Origin: Verrucomicrobiota bacterium
GTDB taxonomy: Bacteria; Verrucomicrobiota; Kiritimatiellia; JAKQHR01
Length of the DNA stretch: 64,000 bases
Assembly (NCBI GenBank): GCA_029557905.1
Contig: JAKQHR010000092.1
Span: forward strand, 11,228-75,227
Direction: 5' to 3'
In this document: piece after piece, positions 6,120-37,111 of the stretch
Numbering within the stretch: the stretch's first letter is position 1
Layout: each line of letters begins with the position of its first letter
Notes under the pieces: model-generated
What the model was told of the DNA's origin: nothing
Seen by the model: only the letters and a program-made list of their open reading frames with translations
Databases searched by the model: none
Program-made: the position numbers and the translations under genes

Positions 6120-6704
6120 ATGAGCAAAGGAAGAAAGCACATATCCATACCCGTGGACATGACCACCCCGGTCCCGGTCTGGTGTGTCGGAACCTATGAC
6201 GAGCAGGACCGTCCCAATGTGATGACCGCCAGCTGGGCGGGCATTGTCTGCAGCCGTCCGCCGTGCGTGGCCGTGGCGCTGCGTGATGCCACGCATTCCT
6301 GCCGCGGACTTCAGGCCCGGAAGGCCTTCACCGTCAGCGTCCCGTCTGAAACCCAGTATGTGCAGGCCGACTACTTCGGGATGGCGGGCGGGAAAACCAA
6401 GGACAAGTTTGCCGCCAGCCGAACCACCGCGGTCCGGTCCGACAAGGTGGATGCGCCCTATGTCGCCGAATTTCCGCTCATACTGGAATGCGAACTGAAG
6501 GAATCCGTGGTGCTGGGCCTTCACACGCTGTACGTTGGCGAGATCATGGGCGTGAAGGCGCATCCGGACATCCTGAACGGCGACACAGTGGATGCCTCGA
6601 AGCTGGCGCCCTTCTTTTTTTCGCCGTCCGAGCGGGCCTATTACAGAATAGGCGAACGCCTGTCGCCCGCCTTTGCGCCGGGCCGCGCGCTCATGGACCG
6701 GTGA
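6120..6704 (+). CDS. Flavin reductase-like (flavoredoxin) FMN-binding split-barrel protein
   Basis: VWCVGTYDEQDRPNVMTASWAGIVCSRPPCVAVALRDATHSCRGLQARKAFTVSVPS matches the flavin reductase-like domain. Confidence 0.7.
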   Translation: MSKGRKHISIPVDMTTPVPVWCVGTYDEQDRPNVMTASWAGIVCSRPPCVAVALRDATHSCRGLQARKAFTVSVPSETQYVQADYFGMAGGKTKDKFAASRTTAVRSDKVDAPYVAEFPLILECELKESVVLGLHTLYVGEIMGVKAHPDILNGDTVDASKLAPFFFSPSERAYYRIGERLSPAFAPGRALMDR

Positions 6705-6710
6705 GTCCGA

Positions 6711-6800
6711 AAAAGTTCCAATGACTGGAAAATCCCGCCGAAAAAGTTCCAATCATTGGAACTTTTTTCCCGAAAACTTCCAGTCATTGGAACTTTTCAG
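6711..6800. repeat. Array of three tandem AT-rich palindromic elements (AAAAGTTCCAATSATTGGAACTTTT) in a convergent intergenic spacer
   Basis: Copies at 6711-6731 (ttccaatgactggaa), 6741-6768 (gttccaatcattggaac) and 6773-6800 (ttccagtcattggaa, the reverse complement of copy 1). Each is an A-tract/hairpin/T-tract unit. The same motif triplet recurs at 39024-39113. Confidence 0.85.
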
Positions 6801-7978
6801 GCACTGCGCACGCGGGGCTTTGTGGTGATTTCAAGCGCGATCACGCACAGGTCGTCTTCCAGGGGCGTGCCGTCCGCGAAGAGCATGACCTCCTCCAGCA
6901 GGCCGTCCACCAGCTCCTTGACGTTTTTGTACATCAGCCGGCGGAGCACGGACTCCATGCGCTCGATGCCGAATTCCTCGCGCTGGCGGTTGAAGGCCTC
7001 GTAGACGCCGTCGGTGAAGAAGATGAACACATCATCCGGCACCAGCCGGCAGTGTCCGCCGGAGAACGCCTCGTCCGGAATGACGCCGAGCGCGGCGCCG
7101 CGCGGCGGCGGCACTTCAAGCCGCGAGATGCGGCCCACGCTCCGGTGCAGGTGGAAGGGACTGGGATGTCCGGCGGAAGAATAGGTGGCGATGCGGGAAG
7201 TGGTGTCGGCCACAAAATAGAAGGCCGAGGCAAACAGCGGATTGGGGATGCTTTTGAGCAGATCGCAGAACTGGCGGTTGATTTCAGAAAGGAAATGCGG
7301 GGCATGCCGCGCATAGGACAGCAGGTCCACCAGCAGGGTGCGCAGGATGGATGTGATCAGCGCGCTGCGCGTTCCATGGCCCATCACGTCGGCAATGAAC
7401 ACGCCGCCGGCATCGCGGCCGGCCTGGAGCAGATTGTAGAAGTCGCCGCCGAGCGCCGACGCCGGGCGGTAGCAGTGATGGAACTCCAGCCGCAGGCGTC
7501 CGGGAATGTGCACGTCGGGAATGGCGGGATAGGGCCGCTCCAGCATGGCCTCCTGAAAATCCTTGGCCAGTTCCAGGTCGCGCCGCATGTCGGAGGTGCG
7601 GGCGGCCACTTCGTCGGCATATTCCTTCTTGAAATCATCCAGCCAGGCATCCAGCTTATTCTGAACGGGCGAAGGCGGCAGGGGTGCGGCGCCCGGCGGG
7701 TCGGGTTCCGCCGCGCGGCCCAGCGCGTTGCGCATGATCCACTCGCCGGCGTCCAGCATTTCGCCGTAGGGGTTCAGCAGCCGGTGTTTCACGCGGGTGA
7801 ACACCGCCATGAAAATTCCCGCGGCAGCGGCCAGCGCCACGGCTCCGGCAAACAGGACCTGCCAAAGGTTCAGGGAGGCGATGCAGGCCGTTATGGCGGT
7901 TGCGCAAACGGCCAGCAGGAAAAGCAGTCCTCCCAGCAGAATGGCCATCCATTTGTGCAATCTTGTCTGCGGCTTCAT
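6797..7978 (-). CDS. PP2C-family (SpoIIE/RsbU-type) protein serine/threonine phosphatase with N-terminal double-TM anchor
   Basis: Two N-terminal TM helices, then GGDFYNLLQAGRDAGGVFIADVMGHGTRSALITSIL...ATYSSAGHPSPF, characteristic of the PP2C SpoIIE/RsbU catalytic domain. Confidence 0.8.
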   Translation of the reverse strand: MKPQTRLHKWMAILLGGLLFLLAVCATAITACIASLNLWQVLFAGAVALAAAAGIFMAVFTRVKHRLLNPYGEMLDAGEWIMRNALGRAAEPDPPGAAPLPPSPVQNKLDAWLDDFKKEYADEVAARTSDMRRDLELAKDFQEAMLERPYPAIPDVHIPGRLRLEFHHCYRPASALGGDFYNLLQAGRDAGGVFIADVMGHGTRSALITSILRTLLVDLLSYARHAPHFLSEINRQFCDLLKSIPNPLFASAFYFVADTTSRIATYSSAGHPSPFHLHRSVGRISRLEVPPPRGAALGVIPDEAFSGGHCRLVPDDVFIFFTDGVYEAFNRQREEFGIERMESVLRRLMYKNVKELVDGLLEEVMLFADGTPLEDDLCVIALEITTKPRVRSA

Positions 7979-14494: not shown

Positions 14495-14550
14495 GGAGGG
14501 TCGAGCTCTGCGAGATCGAATTTCCGCGGCGTCGCAGAGCTCCGCCCTCC
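14495..14550. repeat. REP-like imperfect palindrome (GGAGGGTCGAGCTCTGCGA...TCGCAGAGCTCCGCCCTCC) flanking the RAYT gene
   Basis: ~56-nt inverted repeat. A further half-copy lies at 14583-14609 (GGAGGGTCGAGCTCCGCGAGACCGAAT). Its inverted partner TTTCCGCGGCGTCGCGGAGCTCCGCCCTCC is on the other side of the gene at 15125-15154. Confidence 0.8.
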
Positions 14551-14608
14551 AATCCTGAAATAGAGCGTCTATATGAACATCTGGAGGGTCGAGCTCCGCG
14601 AGACCGAA

Positions 14609-15082
14609 TCACCACCGCAACACATTGATTTCGCCGCAAAAGGGCCAGTCATCGGGTGATTCAACCAAACCTGCCCGGACGGGATTTTGGCGCACATATT
14701 CCCATTTATTGCCGTAACTCTCTTCGCGCCGTAATTGAGTATCCCAAAACTCCCGCTGCCATATTGGTTTTTCATTTTTGCGCGGCCATTGGCGGGTCAC
14801 CTCATTCTTCCAATAAGTGATCCATGCCTTCAGCCGGCAATTCAAATCTCTCGGCGCGCAGAAAAGGTGAATATGGTCGGGCATAATCACATAGCGACCG
14901 ACCAGCCAGCGATCGGCTTTTGTCCAGCCATCCAATAGCAGGTGTTGTGCTTCTGTATTGGCAAGCAAAGGTCGTTTGTCCTTCACGCAGAGTGTCAGAA
15001 ACAAAATGGTCGGATGATTGACCCTGATGTGAGGCGGATGATGCGCGGGGTGACATCTTTGCGGCAATTGGCTTTCGTTCAT
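14609..15082 (-). mobile_element. REP-associated tyrosine transposase (RAYT / TnpA_REP, IS200-like Y1 HuH transposase)
   Basis: HuH motif YVIMPDHIHLF; IWQREFWDTQLR and WEYVRQNPVRAGLVESPDDWPF closely parallel E. coli YafM (IWQPRFWEHAIR...DYIYINPVKHGWV...DWPF), including the catalytic Tyr context. Flanked by inverted REP elements. Confidence 0.85.
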
Positions 15083-15116: not shown

Positions 15117-15154
15117 GAGTTCAATTTCCGCGGCGTCGCGGAGCTCCGCCCTCC
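15117..15154. repeat. REP-like element, inverted partner of the 14583-14609 copy
   Basis: gagttcaatttccgcggcgtcgcggagctccgccctcc; a degenerate further copy may lie at 15190-15240. Confidence 0.75.
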
Positions 15155-15306
15155 AAAAATACCTTCCAGCCTCCGGTATGAACACATAGGGGGTCGATCT
15201 CCCACCTTCGCCAGGGGGCTTCGGAGGACAAGCCGCGAGACCGTACTTGTTTTCCATACTCCTCTGATTTAGAGTCATTGCCGGAAATTCACAGGGATAC
15301 TGATTT

Positions 15307-21500: not shown

Positions 21501-21776
21501 CTGGCGGACCGGTTCGGGCCGCTGCCGCCGCCGTTTGTGCGCCTGTTGAAGACCGCCCGCATCCGGGTCCGCGCCACCGCCTGCGCCATTGACCGCGTCG
21601 AAACCCGCGAAGATAAAATCATGCTCATGCGCGGCGGAGACTATCTGCAGCGGTCCGGCCGGTTTCCGAGAATGAACTCTGACGACGCGACGATCCGCCT
21701 GGATGAAATACTCGATGAATTGTGCCGCTGGCGGGTGAGTCCCGAAAACAGCCTCAAAATGCCAAAAAAACGCTGA
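18501..21776 (+). CDS. mfd: Transcription-repair coupling factor
   Basis: UvrB-homology N-terminal region, RNAP-interacting domain, DEAD/DEAH helicase core ([26 protein letters not shown]), TRCF C-terminal domain. Start may be the upstream TTG at 18450. Confidence 0.93.
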
Positions 21777-21871
21777 AAAAGGTCCAAAAACGGCAAAAAA
21801 TCGCTCAAAAACGGCAAAAAACGGCCCAAAAACCCAAAAAAATGCAAAAACAGAGAAAAATGAAGCAAAAA
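21764..21871. promoter_or_regulatory. Eleven helically phased A5-7 tracts (predicted intrinsically curved DNA)
   Basis: A-tract starts at 21764, 21776, 21786, 21795, 21807, 21816, 21828, 21836, 21846, 21856, 21867 (mean spacing ~10.3 bp), in a genome that is otherwise ~65% GC. Confidence 0.7.
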
Positions 21872-22005
21872 TATCCCGTCAGCGTTTGCGATTCCAAAAC
21901 GGGCCGAAACTGTCCTGGGCCTGGGGCACCGCGGTCGGCGGCCGATGGATGCTGACTGGGGGCACATAATTTCCCGCTGTTCAGCCCGGGATTTCCCGCG
22001 CCGGC

Positions 22006-22035
22006 TTGAAATAGTACTAAAATAGTACTATTTCC
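22006..22035. promoter_or_regulatory. Duplicated palindromic operator-like site (TAGTACTA x2, 11-bp register; AAATAGTACTATTT perfect 14-bp palindrome) upstream of uspA
   Basis: ttgaaatagtactaaaatagtactatttc; TAGTACTA at 22012-22019 and 22023-22030, ~200 bp upstream of the uspA ATG. Confidence 0.6.
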
Positions 22036-22228
22036 GTGAAAAACGCGATTTTCAGGGCATTTTCCCCGTTTTTATCGAAAAAATTGCCCTTTGGGGGTCG
22101 TTTTCGCTGTTTTTCTTCATTTTTACGCGTTTCTGCGTCTCCTGCGCGGCTGGAAACGCGCGCTGGACTTTTGGCGCGCCGGGGTTCAATATGATTACAA
22201 AGAGGCAGACAACAGAAGGGAGACGGCC

Positions 22229-32974: not shown

Positions 32975-35362
32975 ATGGCCCTGAAAGCAGATAAAGTCAG
33001 TTCGATGCTGTGCAGTCACTGCGGAGCCGCCATGGATGTGTCTTCACAGGACCCGTTTTCCACGGCGCTGTGCCCGGCTTGCGGCCGTTCGCAGATAGTG
33101 CCGATGCAGTTCGGCTCGATCCTTCTTCTTGAACCGCTTGGGGCCGGAGGCATGGGGGCCATCTACCGCGCGCTGGATCCCATGCTGGACCGCTATCTGG
33201 CCATCAAGGTGATGCAGACCGCCGGCGCGGCAGATGATCAGTTCGTGGAGAATTTCTTCCGTGAAGCCCGCGCCGCCGCCGCGCTCAACCATCCCCACAT
33301 CGTTCAGATTTATTCCTGCGGCCGCGAGTACGGCCAGCCCTACATCGCCATGGAACTGCTGGAGGGAGGGACCCTCGATGAGATGATCCATTCTTCCGGC
33401 ACCGTGGACGAGCTGGATGTTCTGCAAATCGGCATATCTGTTTCCGAGGGTCTTCGGGCTGCAGGCGAAATCGGGCTGACGCATGGAGACATCAAGCCCG
33501 CCAATATTCTTTTCGACAGCCATCACAAGGCCAAGATCGCCGATTTCGGACTGGCCCGCTTCATGCAGCAGGGCTCCTCCGCTGAAATATGGGGAACTCC
33601 TTTCTACATTGCTCCCGAGAAACTGCGGAAGCAGAAGGAGGATCAGCGTTCCGATATCTACAGCCTCGGCGCCACGCTTTTTCACGCACTGACCGGGCAG
33701 CCCCCGTTTGACGGCAAGACGGCCACGGATGTGGCGGTCGCCCGTCTGGACCAGCCGCCGCCGGATGTCCGCGACAGAAATCCGGGAATATCTCCCGAAG
33801 TGGCGGCGGTCATTGCGCGCATGCTCAAGGAGAATCCGCACGAGCGATATCCCACCTATGCTTCGCTGATTGCCGACATGAAGAGTGTGCTGGCGGTGCT
33901 TCGGCAGAAACGCGGCAGCCGGCCGATGCGTCCTAAAATGAGGAAATCGCACGCGGGCGCTTTTGTGGCCGCGGCCCTTTTTGCGCTTATTGCCGCGGGG
34001 ATATGGATGAGCCAGCGCGAAGGTTCGGGGCCTCCCGAGGGTCCGCTGTCCGGCCCGTCTCGTCCGGAGGAACCCGCCGTGCCGGAGATGCGGGGAAGTA
34101 AGCCTTTTGAGGGCGTTCGCGGAACCGCCATGGAACGGATACTGAACCTGTTCGCCGCCGGGAATGTCATGGCGGCATCAGAAAGTCTGCAGGCGCTGTA
34201 TGAAAAAATTCCCCCGGACAGTCCGGATCGCTCGTGGATATGCCTGTTTCAGGCGCTGATGCTCTGGTATGACGGAAACGGCGGGAGCGGGGATGAACTG
34301 CTTGACCGGGCTCTGGCCGGGTTCGCCGGGAGCGATGCCTCGGCCGGCGCCCTGATCGCCGCATACATGAAGGGGAATATGGATGAGGCGGCGGTTGAAG
34401 CCTCTGCCGGCGAGCAACCGCAGTGGGTGGGCGATTTCACCGGATTTGTCGCGGGTATGAATCATGCCCGGCAGGGACGAAAGGATGAAGCGGACGTGCG
34501 CTGGCGCACTTATCTTCAGACCACGAATGACAAGCCGGCCTGGGTTTATGTCCTGAAGCCTCTGGCGCAGAAATTCACGGAAAGTCACGCCCGCTGGGAA
34601 CGTCTGAATGCGGAAGTGACCGCTCTGCTCGAAGCCCGCAAACCCGGAGAGGCCCGGGTTCTTCTGCGCGATTTCAAGCTGACCGCCGGTCCGGTCTTTG
34701 CCGCTGAAACGGATCAGCTCTTCGAGAAGGTTCAGGCGCTGGAAGCCTCGCTGACCGAGGCCGAGGCGGCCCGCCTCGCGGAACAGCAGGCTGCGGCCGC
34801 CGCCAGAAAAAAAGCAAAAGCCGAGTCCGAGGTCGCAAAGGTTCGGAAAGCGGTGGAATCCGGCCGGAGACACTATCCCTCCAGGGATTTCGATAGGGCT
34901 CTAGCCGCAATTGAAAAGCTTCGGCCCGCGATGACTACGGAAGAGGGATGGGTGGAATATCAGCTGGCGCGCGAAAAAGTGTCCCGTCTTGACGCAATGC
35001 ACCGCTATCTCCAGAACGCATTGCGCACGCGTCCCTGCAGAATCAGTGTGTTCGGGAAAAACACGCGCGTGGCGGGAGCAACCTCGCGTGGTGTGCGCGT
35101 GGCGATTGGCACTCAGGCCGATATGGTGCGGGAGTGGCAGGAGATCACGGCGGCCCAGTATGTCGGCCTGATTCGCCAGTATCTTGATGCTGAACAGAAA
35201 ACCGTGCGCGAGAAAGCGGATGATCATCTCAGCCTGGCCGTGTTCGCTTCGGAAACAGACGGCGGACAGCTGGCCGCGCAGCTTGCGCGAAAAGCCGTGG
35301 CGCTGGATCCGGCCGTCAGGGATCTCGGCCTGCGCCTTCTGCCTGATCTGGACTGGGAATAG
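32975..35362 (+). CDS. Hanks-type Ser/Thr protein kinase with N-terminal zinc ribbon, single TM helix and ~450 aa helical extracytoplasmic C-terminal region
   Basis: CSHCGAAMDV...CPACGRSQIVP zinc ribbon; kinase subdomains LGAGGMGAIYRA, AIKV, HGDIKPANILF, DFG, GTPFYIAPE; TM AGAFVAAALFALIAAGIWM; C-terminal alpha-helical region with a coiled coil. Confidence 0.88.
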   Translation: MALKADKVSSMLCSHCGAAMDVSSQDPFSTALCPACGRSQIVPMQFGSILLLEPLGAGGMGAIYRALDPMLDRYLAIKVMQTAGAADDQFVENFFREARAAAALNHPHIVQIYSCGREYGQPYIAMELLEGGTLDEMIHSSGTVDELDVLQIGISVSEGLRAAGEIGLTHGDIKPANILFDSHHKAKIADFGLARFMQQGSSAEIWGTPFYIAPEKLRKQKEDQRSDIYSLGATLFHALTGQPPFDGKTATDVAVARLDQPPPDVRDRNPGISPEVAAVIARMLKENPHERYPTYASLIADMKSVLAVLRQKRGSRPMRPKMRKSHAGAFVAAALFALIAAGIWMSQREGSGPPEGPLSGPSRPEEPAVPEMRGSKPFEGVRGTAMERILNLFAAGNVMAASESLQALYEKIPPDSPDRSWICLFQALMLWYDGNGGSGDELLDRALAGFAGSDASAGALIAAYMKGNMDEAAVEASAGEQPQWVGDFTGFVAGMNHARQGRKDEADVRWRTYLQTTNDKPAWVYVLKPLAQKFTESHARWERLNAEVTALLEARKPGEARVLLRDFKLTAGPVFAAETDQLFEKVQALEASLTEAEAARLAEQQAAAAARKKAKAESEVAKVRKAVESGRRHYPSRDFDRALAAIEKLRPAMTTEEGWVEYQLAREKVSRLDAMHRYLQNALRTRPCRISVFGKNTRVAGATSRGVRVAIGTQADMVREWQEITAAQYVGLIRQYLDAEQKTVREKADDHLSLAVFASETDGGQLAAQLARKAVALDPAVRDLGLRLLPDLDWE

Positions 35363-37054: not shown

Positions 37055-37111
37055 AACGCTTGAACCCGCCGTCCCCGCTGTGCTAGCTTGACACTGTTCA
37101 GGAGTAATCCC

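Follow-up and report, generated by a model that had tools for sequence, protein, structure and literature searches.

What is an array of three AT-rich palindromes doing in the gap between two convergent bacterial genes? The gap (6705-6796, 92 bp) lies in a 64-kb stretch of DNA from a Verrucomicrobiota bacterium (assembly GCA_029557905.1, contig JAKQHR010000092.1), which as a whole is called “the window” here, and, as the original prediction had it, separates the 3′ ends of a flavin reductase (there named flavoredoxin) and a PP2C phosphatase gene; it is filled, from one TGA stop to the other, by what we call array 1. It belongs, as a single locus, to a family of palindrome arrays that are helically phased and specific to a lineage. 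The reading that we favor, while holding it tentatively, is that the arrays are helically phased, cooperative binding sites for a putative dimeric, sequence-specific protein at gene boundaries, comparable in role to the bacterial interspersed mosaic elements (BIMEs) of E. coli.

Array 1 spans 6707-6799 (Table 1) as three 31-bp units in exact register, with start-to-start spacings of 31 and 31 rather than the ~30-35 bp that had been estimated, in a window whose GC content is ~60% (range 0.55-0.63) rather than 65%. The layout attributed to every unit (an A-tract, a palindrome and a T-tract) survives in full only in the central one: unit 1 lacks a T-tract (its right side reads AAATCC), and there is one mismatch inside unit 1 and another inside unit 3. 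Similarly, copy 3 is the exact reverse complement of copy 1 as far as the cores go, but the flanks are complementary only in part. A degenerate 15-mer for the core has six matches in the window against 0.52 expected (0/100 shuffles reach six), and all six fall in two arrays, the other being array 2, a three-unit array between a Ser/Thr kinase gene and a DUF805 gene. Through the proteins flanking it, array 1 itself was located at 99.6-99.9% identity on contigs of two metagenome-assembled genomes (MAGs; GCA_035342175.1 and GCA_035341175.1) and in several metagenome assemblies. The source of the window is a Kiritimatiellia MAG and not a Desulfovibrio, and it is present in digester or sludge samples such as ERZ27257442 and SRR4236649.

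The element is by no means confined to these two loci. A single scan of 185,579 species genomes with the exact 19-mer AGTTCCAATSATTGGAACT returned 55 stretches, two of which (L047 and L053) are chance matches inside genes; the rest lie in MAGs whose labels read Kiritimatiellia, Kiritimatiellales or Verrucomicrobiota, apart from a single contig labelled “Pseudomonadota” and a single MAG labelled “Bacteroidia”. Nearly all of the matches are held by arrays of 2-4 units, and the family comes to ~70 such arrays in 14 genome-collection records, the window and the contig of locus L065, which bears out the suggestion that it is a dispersed one. Eighteen of the stretches are in JBFXGK01 alone, a close relative of the window organism (78-92% protein identity, with synteny over window 39135-44391), and a single 8-kb locus of CAIVKH01 can hold up to 3-4 arrays. 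L065 came from a metagenome scan with the PP2C protein, which gave three loci, one of them this 82%-identical ortholog. One MAG has two near-identical arrays (L023 and L024). The two discordant labels belong to RZYD01 (L037, L041, L043 and L058), a 46%-GC MAG labelled Bacteroidia that carries the palindrome at a 41-bp period, and to JAKQEE01 (L039), where a contig binned as Pseudomonadota has the palindrome; unless the family extends across phyla, the bins or labels are wrong, and a homolog search with one RZYD01 protein was uninformative on the Bacteroidia label. A scan of IMG/VR gave one chance match only, in coding sequence of an AT-rich contig.

What unites the family is a 15-bp core, TTCCAAT-S-ATTGGAA, set in a symmetric unit consensus, nnAAAnTTCCAATSATTGGAAnTTTnn. 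Our literature search, across 8 million papers, found neither 15-mer, and nothing on Kiritimatiellia repeats. Units were collected at up to 2 mismatches, a threshold that inflates the apparent conservation of the core but would still pass a compensatory double change. Across 174 distinct units, the TTCCA and TGGAA blocks, centered 10 bp apart, are 98-100% invariant; core positions ±2 and ±1 show transitions in 6-8% of units; the center base divides evenly between C and G, with A or T all but absent; A prevails in the left flank and T in the right one (0.3-0.85 bits); and the linkers have roughly genomic composition. These linkers (4-7 bp) differ in sequence in every array while keeping a constant length, and the center bases of neighboring units agree about as often as they differ. 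TTCCA-N5-TGGAA, the bipartite motif, is found only inside arrays (6, 46, 22 and 53 occurrences in four genome sets), with 0-3 occurrences in the same sets of one-base-shorter controls (TCCA-N4/N6-TGGA). Units of CAIVKH01 keep the core without T-tracts, as GCAAAG-core-CTTTGC or with A/T-poor flanks.

The spacing of the units is as regular as their cores. It is 31 bp in 38/38 intervals of the window, JBFXGK01, JAQVYB, JACKPT and JAKQEE, mostly in three-unit arrays; 32 bp in 45/49 intervals of CAIVKH01, CAYYAR01, CALMYG01 and others, mostly in two-unit arrays; and 41 bp in 4/5 intervals of RZYD01. Every spacing class falls within ~1 bp of a multiple of 10.5, including the rare classes of 22, 42, 53 and 63 bp, which consist of few degenerate arrays. 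Within each unit, moreover, the AT-rich stretches are placed near -10.5, 0 and +10.5 bp (the outer ones being the A-tract and T-tract in the window lineage), and in both window arrays the periodicity of the AT content is at its peak at 10-10.7 bp, a level that 0-2 of 500 shuffles reach.

Three orthologous pairs of arrays (window array 2 and L019; window array 1 and L065; L025 and L056) allow cores and linkers to be compared at the same locus. Their aligned flanking DNA is 73-80% identical (73% for L025/L056, where the aligned flank spans the array), and the pooled differences amount to 10/120 positions in cores, 19/80 in A/T flanks and 14/31 in linkers (Fisher p = 7e-6 for core vs linker), with no indels and with unit number and total length exactly kept. 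By this comparison of sequences, the orthologous array loci are under purifying selection. In a 99.65%-identical strain, the changes are confined to linker and A-tract. A pair count over 150 distinct units found 0 double-sided (compensatory) changes in the six core pairs; the CC/GG and inner A/T pairs are invariant, and the flank pairs are paired in only ~55-60% of units. By these counts, the constraint acts on sequence and not on structure. The far-side gene differs in 2/3 of the orthologous comparisons, and synteny breaks exactly at the array. At L065, the array stays with PP2C (its stop fused to the T-tract as in the window) but faces gyrA instead of the flavin reductase; at L019, it stays with DUF805/MFS and another gene replaces the kinase, whose ortholog lies in L027 without an array. 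The arrays may be recombination breakpoints. Downstream of a PP2C homolog at 52% identity, on a contig reading as more AT-rich, there is no array.

The context was read from ORFs (open reading frames) called by codon-usage score after masking of the arrays, a procedure that gave back the database's own gene calls for the window. Every array with 2 or more units is intergenic, with 30 in co-oriented, 16 in convergent and 9 in divergent gaps; set against all gaps of 40 nt or more in these loci, this means an occupancy of 16/35 for convergent, 30/100 for tandem and 9/47 for divergent gaps (convergent vs divergent, p = 0.015). Of the stop codons facing an array, 39/67 are no more than 40 nt away from the center of its first unit, and many are fused to the A-tract (TGAAAAG). 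At three JBFXGK01 arrays (L008 at 2680, L010 at 2908 and L014 at 5462), the upstream ORF even enters the first unit and stops at the TGA of the palindrome center (…AAG TTC CAA TGA). This 3′-end bias has exceptions. Arrays occupy true 5′-5′ gaps at L055, L042 and L039, where both neighbors were checked against Pfam, and at L020, where the left neighbor was so checked and the right adjoining ORF was read by eye, with an ExbB gene beyond; other arrays stand 6-40 nt upstream of the predicted starts of co-oriented genes. The neighbors themselves are ordinary and diverse: 103 proteins have hits to 167 Pfam families, each with at most 3 members, and the 25 Pfam families listed for them include no transposase. 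We sought a recurrent gene beside the arrays and found none, so any partner must act in trans.

Two further observations concern coding potential. At L020 (890-1600), the ORF upstream of the ExbB gene, for a secreted coiled-coil protein, appears to begin within the three-unit array; the TTG in unit 2 would give MEVFRKKVPIIGSFAFLALAAAALA..., one unit then encoding part of a signal peptide. The 93 bp of a three-unit array correspond to 31 codons, and on that strand all frames of C-center units are free of stop codons.

A multimeric protein-binding array had been offered as one option for array 1, and it is the one toward which the data lean, at a little short of an even chance. Under this protein-binding reading, a dimeric protein would read the two TTCCA/TGGAA blocks in the major groove; successive dimers, at intervals of three turns, would occupy the same helix face in cooperative fashion; gene boundaries, mostly just past stop codons, would acquire a bent nucleoprotein block of ~60-125 bp; and this block would serve as a boundary element, whether as a barrier or helper where transcription from either side ends, as a topological (gyrase-type) site, or both. 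We favor phased binding because the invariant 5-bp blocks lie one turn apart, because the AT stretches are phased (where the minor groove would face the same side) and because core changes are never compensatory; because cores are conserved beside saturated linkers and the period is a whole number of turns in three lineages with different periods; and because the core outlives the T-tracts and arrays occur in promoter-side gaps. A phased operator array for a dimeric protein has base-specific conservation in two blocks one turn apart, sites integral turns apart and a bound protein; the first two are observed here, and the binder is putative. The 7-1-7 form with its central AAT-N-ATT recalls the boxes of the Fur family (B. 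subtilis Fur, PerR and Zur). These sequence-level features exceed what an RNA hairpin alone requires. The 3′-end bias, the fusion to stop codons and the A/T-tract flanks suggest that such a block would be tied to transcription ending or to the handling of intergenic supercoils, as has been proposed for BIMEs.

A rather unlikely, if serious, alternative is that the arrays are tandem weak bidirectional intrinsic terminators or 3′-end protective hairpins, copied from a common ancestor and kept because several weak ones in a row would end or stabilize the transcripts of both convergent genes. Perfect units offer an A-tract, a stem of 11-12 bp and a T4-6 tail and fold at -10.8 to -11.2 kcal/mol, and, its units being copies of a single self-complementary sequence, array 1 in its entirety can form a long hairpin on each strand (-54.9 and -57.3 kcal/mol; z -8.5 and -7.7). 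The fuller occupancy of convergent than of divergent gaps and the nearness of the stops, some of them fused to the A-tract or at the central TGA, also fit this alternative, as does the sense strand's slight preference for G:U over A:C (11 vs 4, of 15; p = 0.06). Canonical intrinsic terminators have a GC-rich stem of at least 5 bp, a loop of 3-8 nt and a U-rich tail; by a simple consensus rule, they stand at only 13/101 array-free 3′ ends of the fetched loci. Against this, five stem pairs are invariant, with no compensatory or wobble change in 150 units despite saturated linkers, where structure alone needs none of that, and termination has no use for a strict 31/32-bp period. Taken as bidirectional terminators one by one, the units fare poorly: outer units fold at only -3.8 to -8.6 kcal/mol (roughly -4 to -8, against -15 to -28 for the canonical terminators of the window), a unit passes the canonical rule (our own implementation of a terminator-scan rule) in only 4/43 arrays facing a 3′ end, the terminator scan called none at array 1, T-tracts are missing from the CAIVKH01 units, and arrays occur in divergent gaps and just upstream of predicted starts. 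Nor does the organism want for classical terminators, which it uses at some junctions, as at 42665-42714, where a GC-rich bidirectional terminator (A7-CGCCGCGGTG...CACCGCGGCG-T5; junction region -28 kcal/mol) separates convergent genes (41978-42664 and 42715-44391); another, at ~14460, folds at -15 kcal/mol, and at L046 a canonical terminator adjoins an array. There was no signal that arrays and canonical terminators are mutually exclusive (3/43 vs 13/101, p = 0.39), and no consistent sign of selected pairing between units, the mirrored variant of array 1 (units 1 and 3) being unrepeated in other arrays. The hairpin and T-tract of perfect units may nevertheless add some intrinsic termination in the window lineage.

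The arrays could also be selfish non-autonomous repeats of the repetitive extragenic palindromic (REP)/REPIN (REP doublet forming a hairpin) type or the MITE (miniature inverted-repeat transposable element) type, moved in trans by a putative palindrome-recognizing enzyme and tolerated mainly at gene ends, their conservation serving the enzyme and not the host. Such an origin, a serious rival although we hold it to be unlikely, would account for a copy number that is both high and lineage-dependent (about one extra array per 6 kb in the CAIVKH01 loci vs two in the 64-kb window), for an exclusively intergenic location with a preference for 3′ ends, for the break of synteny at the array, for the near-identical arrays in one MAG and for the likeness of a three-unit array, as a long imperfect inverted repeat, to MITEs and REPINs; a copy-and-paste step is in any case needed for hundreds of identical 15-mers. 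Yet orthologous copies keep their cores as linkers decay, which is unexpected for inert insertions, and within one genome each array has linkers of its own, so none is a recent copy of another as a whole. No target-site duplication was seen in the array flanks examined, there is no transposase near any of ~60 arrays, the window's one ORF resembling a REP-associated tyrosine transposase (RAYT) is flanked by a different repeat, and IMG/VR holds no copy apart from its chance coding match. Far less probable, to the point that we reject it, is a motif like the DNA uptake sequence (DUS) of Neisseria or the uptake signal sequence (USS) of Pasteurellaceae, kept by biased uptake and recombination and accumulating as inverted pairs in terminators. 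Kingsford et al. (in Genome Biol 8:R22, 2007) reportedly linked DUS/USS to terminators, and an exact sequence conserved across the clade, copies at 3′ ends as inverted pairs and helically phased AT-rich tracts beside the core, as in the extended USS, would all agree. The hallmark of a DUS or USS, however, is a single oriented motif that is strongly over-represented, also inside genes, whereas here half-sites outside arrays are at chance level (GTTCCAAT 0-2 vs 0.4-2.5 expected per genome set, AGTTCCAAT never), coding sequence holds no copies and the fixed period is left unexplained. The two serious rivals, termination and selfish spread, are not mutually exclusive.

Several points weigh against the protein-binding reading. 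The protein itself remains hypothetical, being proposed from sequence. The layout of A-tract, stem and T-tract, the distance of 0-40 nt to stops and the G:U excess fit a role at the RNA level. Hundreds of perfect copies need a copy mechanism that binding does not explain. The order of units in JBFXGK01, read on the sense strand of the upstream gene, is fixed (perfect, then AAAAAC-TTCCAATGGTTGGAA-CTTTTT, then degenerate), and a symmetric binding site does not predict this. The constancy of the spacing could in part come from indels being rare in linkers of 4-7 bp; the collection threshold inflates the apparent conservation of the core, and the phasing classes other than 31, 32 and 41 bp consist of a few degenerate arrays.

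Other candidates could be set aside. As a restriction site, CCA-N5-TGG is in every unit, yet it occurs at background frequency outside arrays. As a promoter (by eye), TTGGAA at -35 puts CCAATS at -10, a poor match, and the spacing for sigma-54 is wrong. CRISPR arrays have repeats of 23-47 bp, unique spacers of similar length and, usually, cas genes nearby; here the spacers are 4-7 bp, the units 2-4 and the loci many, and no Cas family is among the 25 listed for neighbors, L039 being the only array locus with a Cas9-like neighbor. MITEs have terminal inverted repeats, a target-site duplication and copies alike over their full length; in our arrays, linkers differ in every case, no flanking direct repeats were seen in those examined, and the outer units of array 1 are inverted copies of each other. 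A known Rfam family can likewise be dismissed, as Rfam 15 gives no match at the arrays at gathering threshold and, at E <= 10, mostly generic long-hairpin microRNA precursors near them, all far below cut-offs.

Among described systems, the REP/BIME elements of E. coli come closest. REPs are imperfect palindromes, one end of which bears a conserved GT(A/G)G head, a cognate RAYT gene has two REPs at its flanks, inverted relative to each other, and BIMEs are regularly spaced REPs that act as protein-binding sites and have proposed roles in chromosome organization and termination (PMC2817692); BIME-2 elements are strong gyrase sites, the flanks of the gyrase motif having a periodicity of ~10.75 bp (PMC6379681). 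Our family resembles them, especially BIME-2, in being made of short extragenic palindromes, many per genome, mostly at 3′ ends and within operons, in regular clusters (at 31 or 32 bp) with an AT periodicity of 10-10.7 bp in the window arrays. It differs in that its units are AT-rich, nearly perfect and symmetric, without a GTAG or GTGG head, in that the center base is C or G without the alternating orientation of BIMEs, in that the linkers, which have conserved motifs in BIMEs, are unconserved and in that no RAYT is flanked by its units. The prediction of a REP/BIME-like family therefore stands for behavior only, and the defining features of REPs are absent. The REPIN-RAYT systems of Pseudomonas and Enterobacteria are reported to be vertically inherited, long-lived repeat populations with conserved internal spacing and a composite that forms a long hairpin (PMC3116915, PMC3337134). 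Short palindromic repeats, conserved spacing within the composite and a long-hairpin fold are shared with these, but the linkers of our arrays are not mutually complementary and the hairpin comes only from self-complementary units.

The window does contain a RAYT-like ORF (Table 1), and the prediction was right to keep the palindromes apart from RAYT-type repeats: the ORF is flanked by a different, GC-rich repeat, and we reject a link between it and the AT palindromes. A tblastn search with it found no copy in the other loci (~440 kb around arrays). A 29-bp pattern from the RAYT-flanking repeat was also seen ~30 bp from palindrome arrays of two other MAGs, at 7053 in L024 and at 3446 in L036.

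Likenesses to other systems are more partial. Gardner et al. are said to have described, in NAR (Nucleic Acids Research) in 2011, the RNIE/TRIT set of sequence-conserved terminators of M. tuberculosis; with TRIT, Neisseria DUS pairs and bidirectional terminators, our family shares an A-tract, stem and T-tract between convergent genes and one stem sequence reused genome-wide, but its stems are weak and AT-rich, in 2-4 copies at a fixed period, some lineages lack T-tracts and some arrays lie in promoter-side gaps. The sopC site of F consists of 12 copies of 43 bp, in each of which SopB binds an inverted repeat of 7 bp. Like such plasmid centromere and iteron arrays, ours are tandem short palindromes (for a dimeric protein that is putative here) at a fixed period with less conserved spacers; a plasmid centromere, however, is one locus per replicon beside the gene for its binder, whereas the family has tens to hundreds of loci of 2-4 units and no linked gene. 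The Correia elements of Neisseria are MITEs, intergenic inverted repeats of ~100 bp that form long hairpins and can affect transcription. An array is likewise an intergenic inverted-repeat element of ~100 bp folding into a long hairpin, but it shows no target-site duplication in the flanks examined, its internal linkers are unrelated, and it repeats one palindrome where Correia-type elements have two terminal repeats around a core.

Table 1. Arrays, adjoining genes and RAYT-associated features in the 64-kb window.
Feature	Position	Strand	Remarks
Flavin_Reduct gene	6120-6704	+	stop TGA 6702-6704, 5 nt ahead of unit 1 A-tract
Array 1 units	6707-6737, 6738-6768, 6769-6799		31-bp spacing
Unit 1 core TTCCAATGACTGGAA	6716-6730		left A5 tract, no right T-tract; hairpin alone -3.8 kcal/mol
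Unit 2 core TTCCAATCATTGGAA	6747-6761		perfect 25-bp palindrome with A5G and CT6 flanks; hairpin -11.2 kcal/mol
Unit 3 core TTCCAGTCATTGGAA	6778-6792		hairpin -8.4 kcal/mol; T-tract of the unit overlaps PP2C stop codon
SpoIIE/PP2C gene	6797-7978	-	stop TGA 6797-6799 fused to unit 3 T-tract (minus strand: TGAAAAG)
GGAGGGTCGAGCTC... repeat pair near RAYT-like ORF	14494, 14582		
GC-rich 34-mer AATTTCCGCGGCGTCGC[A/G]GAGCTCCGCCCTCCAA flanking RAYT-like ORF	14519-14552, 15123-15156		
RAYT-like ORF	14609-15082	-	HUH-type and Y motifs by eye; Pfam Y1_Tnp E = 3.8e-4, below Pfam cut-off
Ser/Thr kinase gene, left of array 2	37088-39001	+	convergent with DUF805 gene
Array 2	39021-39113		three units, 31-bp period; Tandem Repeats Finder (TRF): period 31, 2.8 copies
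Array 2 cores	39030-39044, 39061-39075, 39092-39106		degenerate 15-mer matches
DUF805 gene, right of array 2	39135-39587	-	convergent with kinase gene

Two other parts of the window deserve mention. It has two paralogous Ser/Thr protein kinase genes (32975-35362 and 37088-39001), the second of which has a CBM96-like region and adjoins array 2. At 21756-21870, ~12 A5-7 tracts are phased with a period near 10 bp, as in textbook curved DNA, followed by two direct copies of AAATAGTACTA (22009-22030) and then by phased T-tracts (22040-22130); the whole of 21756-22130 may be an origin-like or major regulatory region. A related palindrome, GAAAATAGTACTAAATTAGTACTATTTTAA, lies ~60 bp from an array in L039 (3362-3392), beside the Cas9-like gene.

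Dispersed intergenic palindromes have been well studied in a few Proteobacteria, and we found none described for the PVC (Planctomycetes-Verrucomicrobia-Chlamydiae) group; the family thus offers a second, independent system in which to ask what BIME-like elements do at gene ends. Its combination of a core that does not vary, a helical period strictly kept within each lineage and linkers free in sequence makes a trans-acting factor directly testable, and the motif is a simple marker of gene boundaries and of the clade in metagenomes, flagging JAKQEE01 and RZYD01 as either sharing the system or mislabelled. A more ambitious view, which we regard as doubtful for now, is that a Kiritimatiellia subclade has a dedicated gene-boundary system, in which an abundant architectural protein would bind TTCCA-N5-TGGAA cooperatively, three turns apart, and form bent blocks that insulate transcription units as bidirectional roadblocks, as fixed gyrase or supercoil-barrier sites, or as both. 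If this were true, the system would be a bacterial counterpart of sequence-defined insulator elements.

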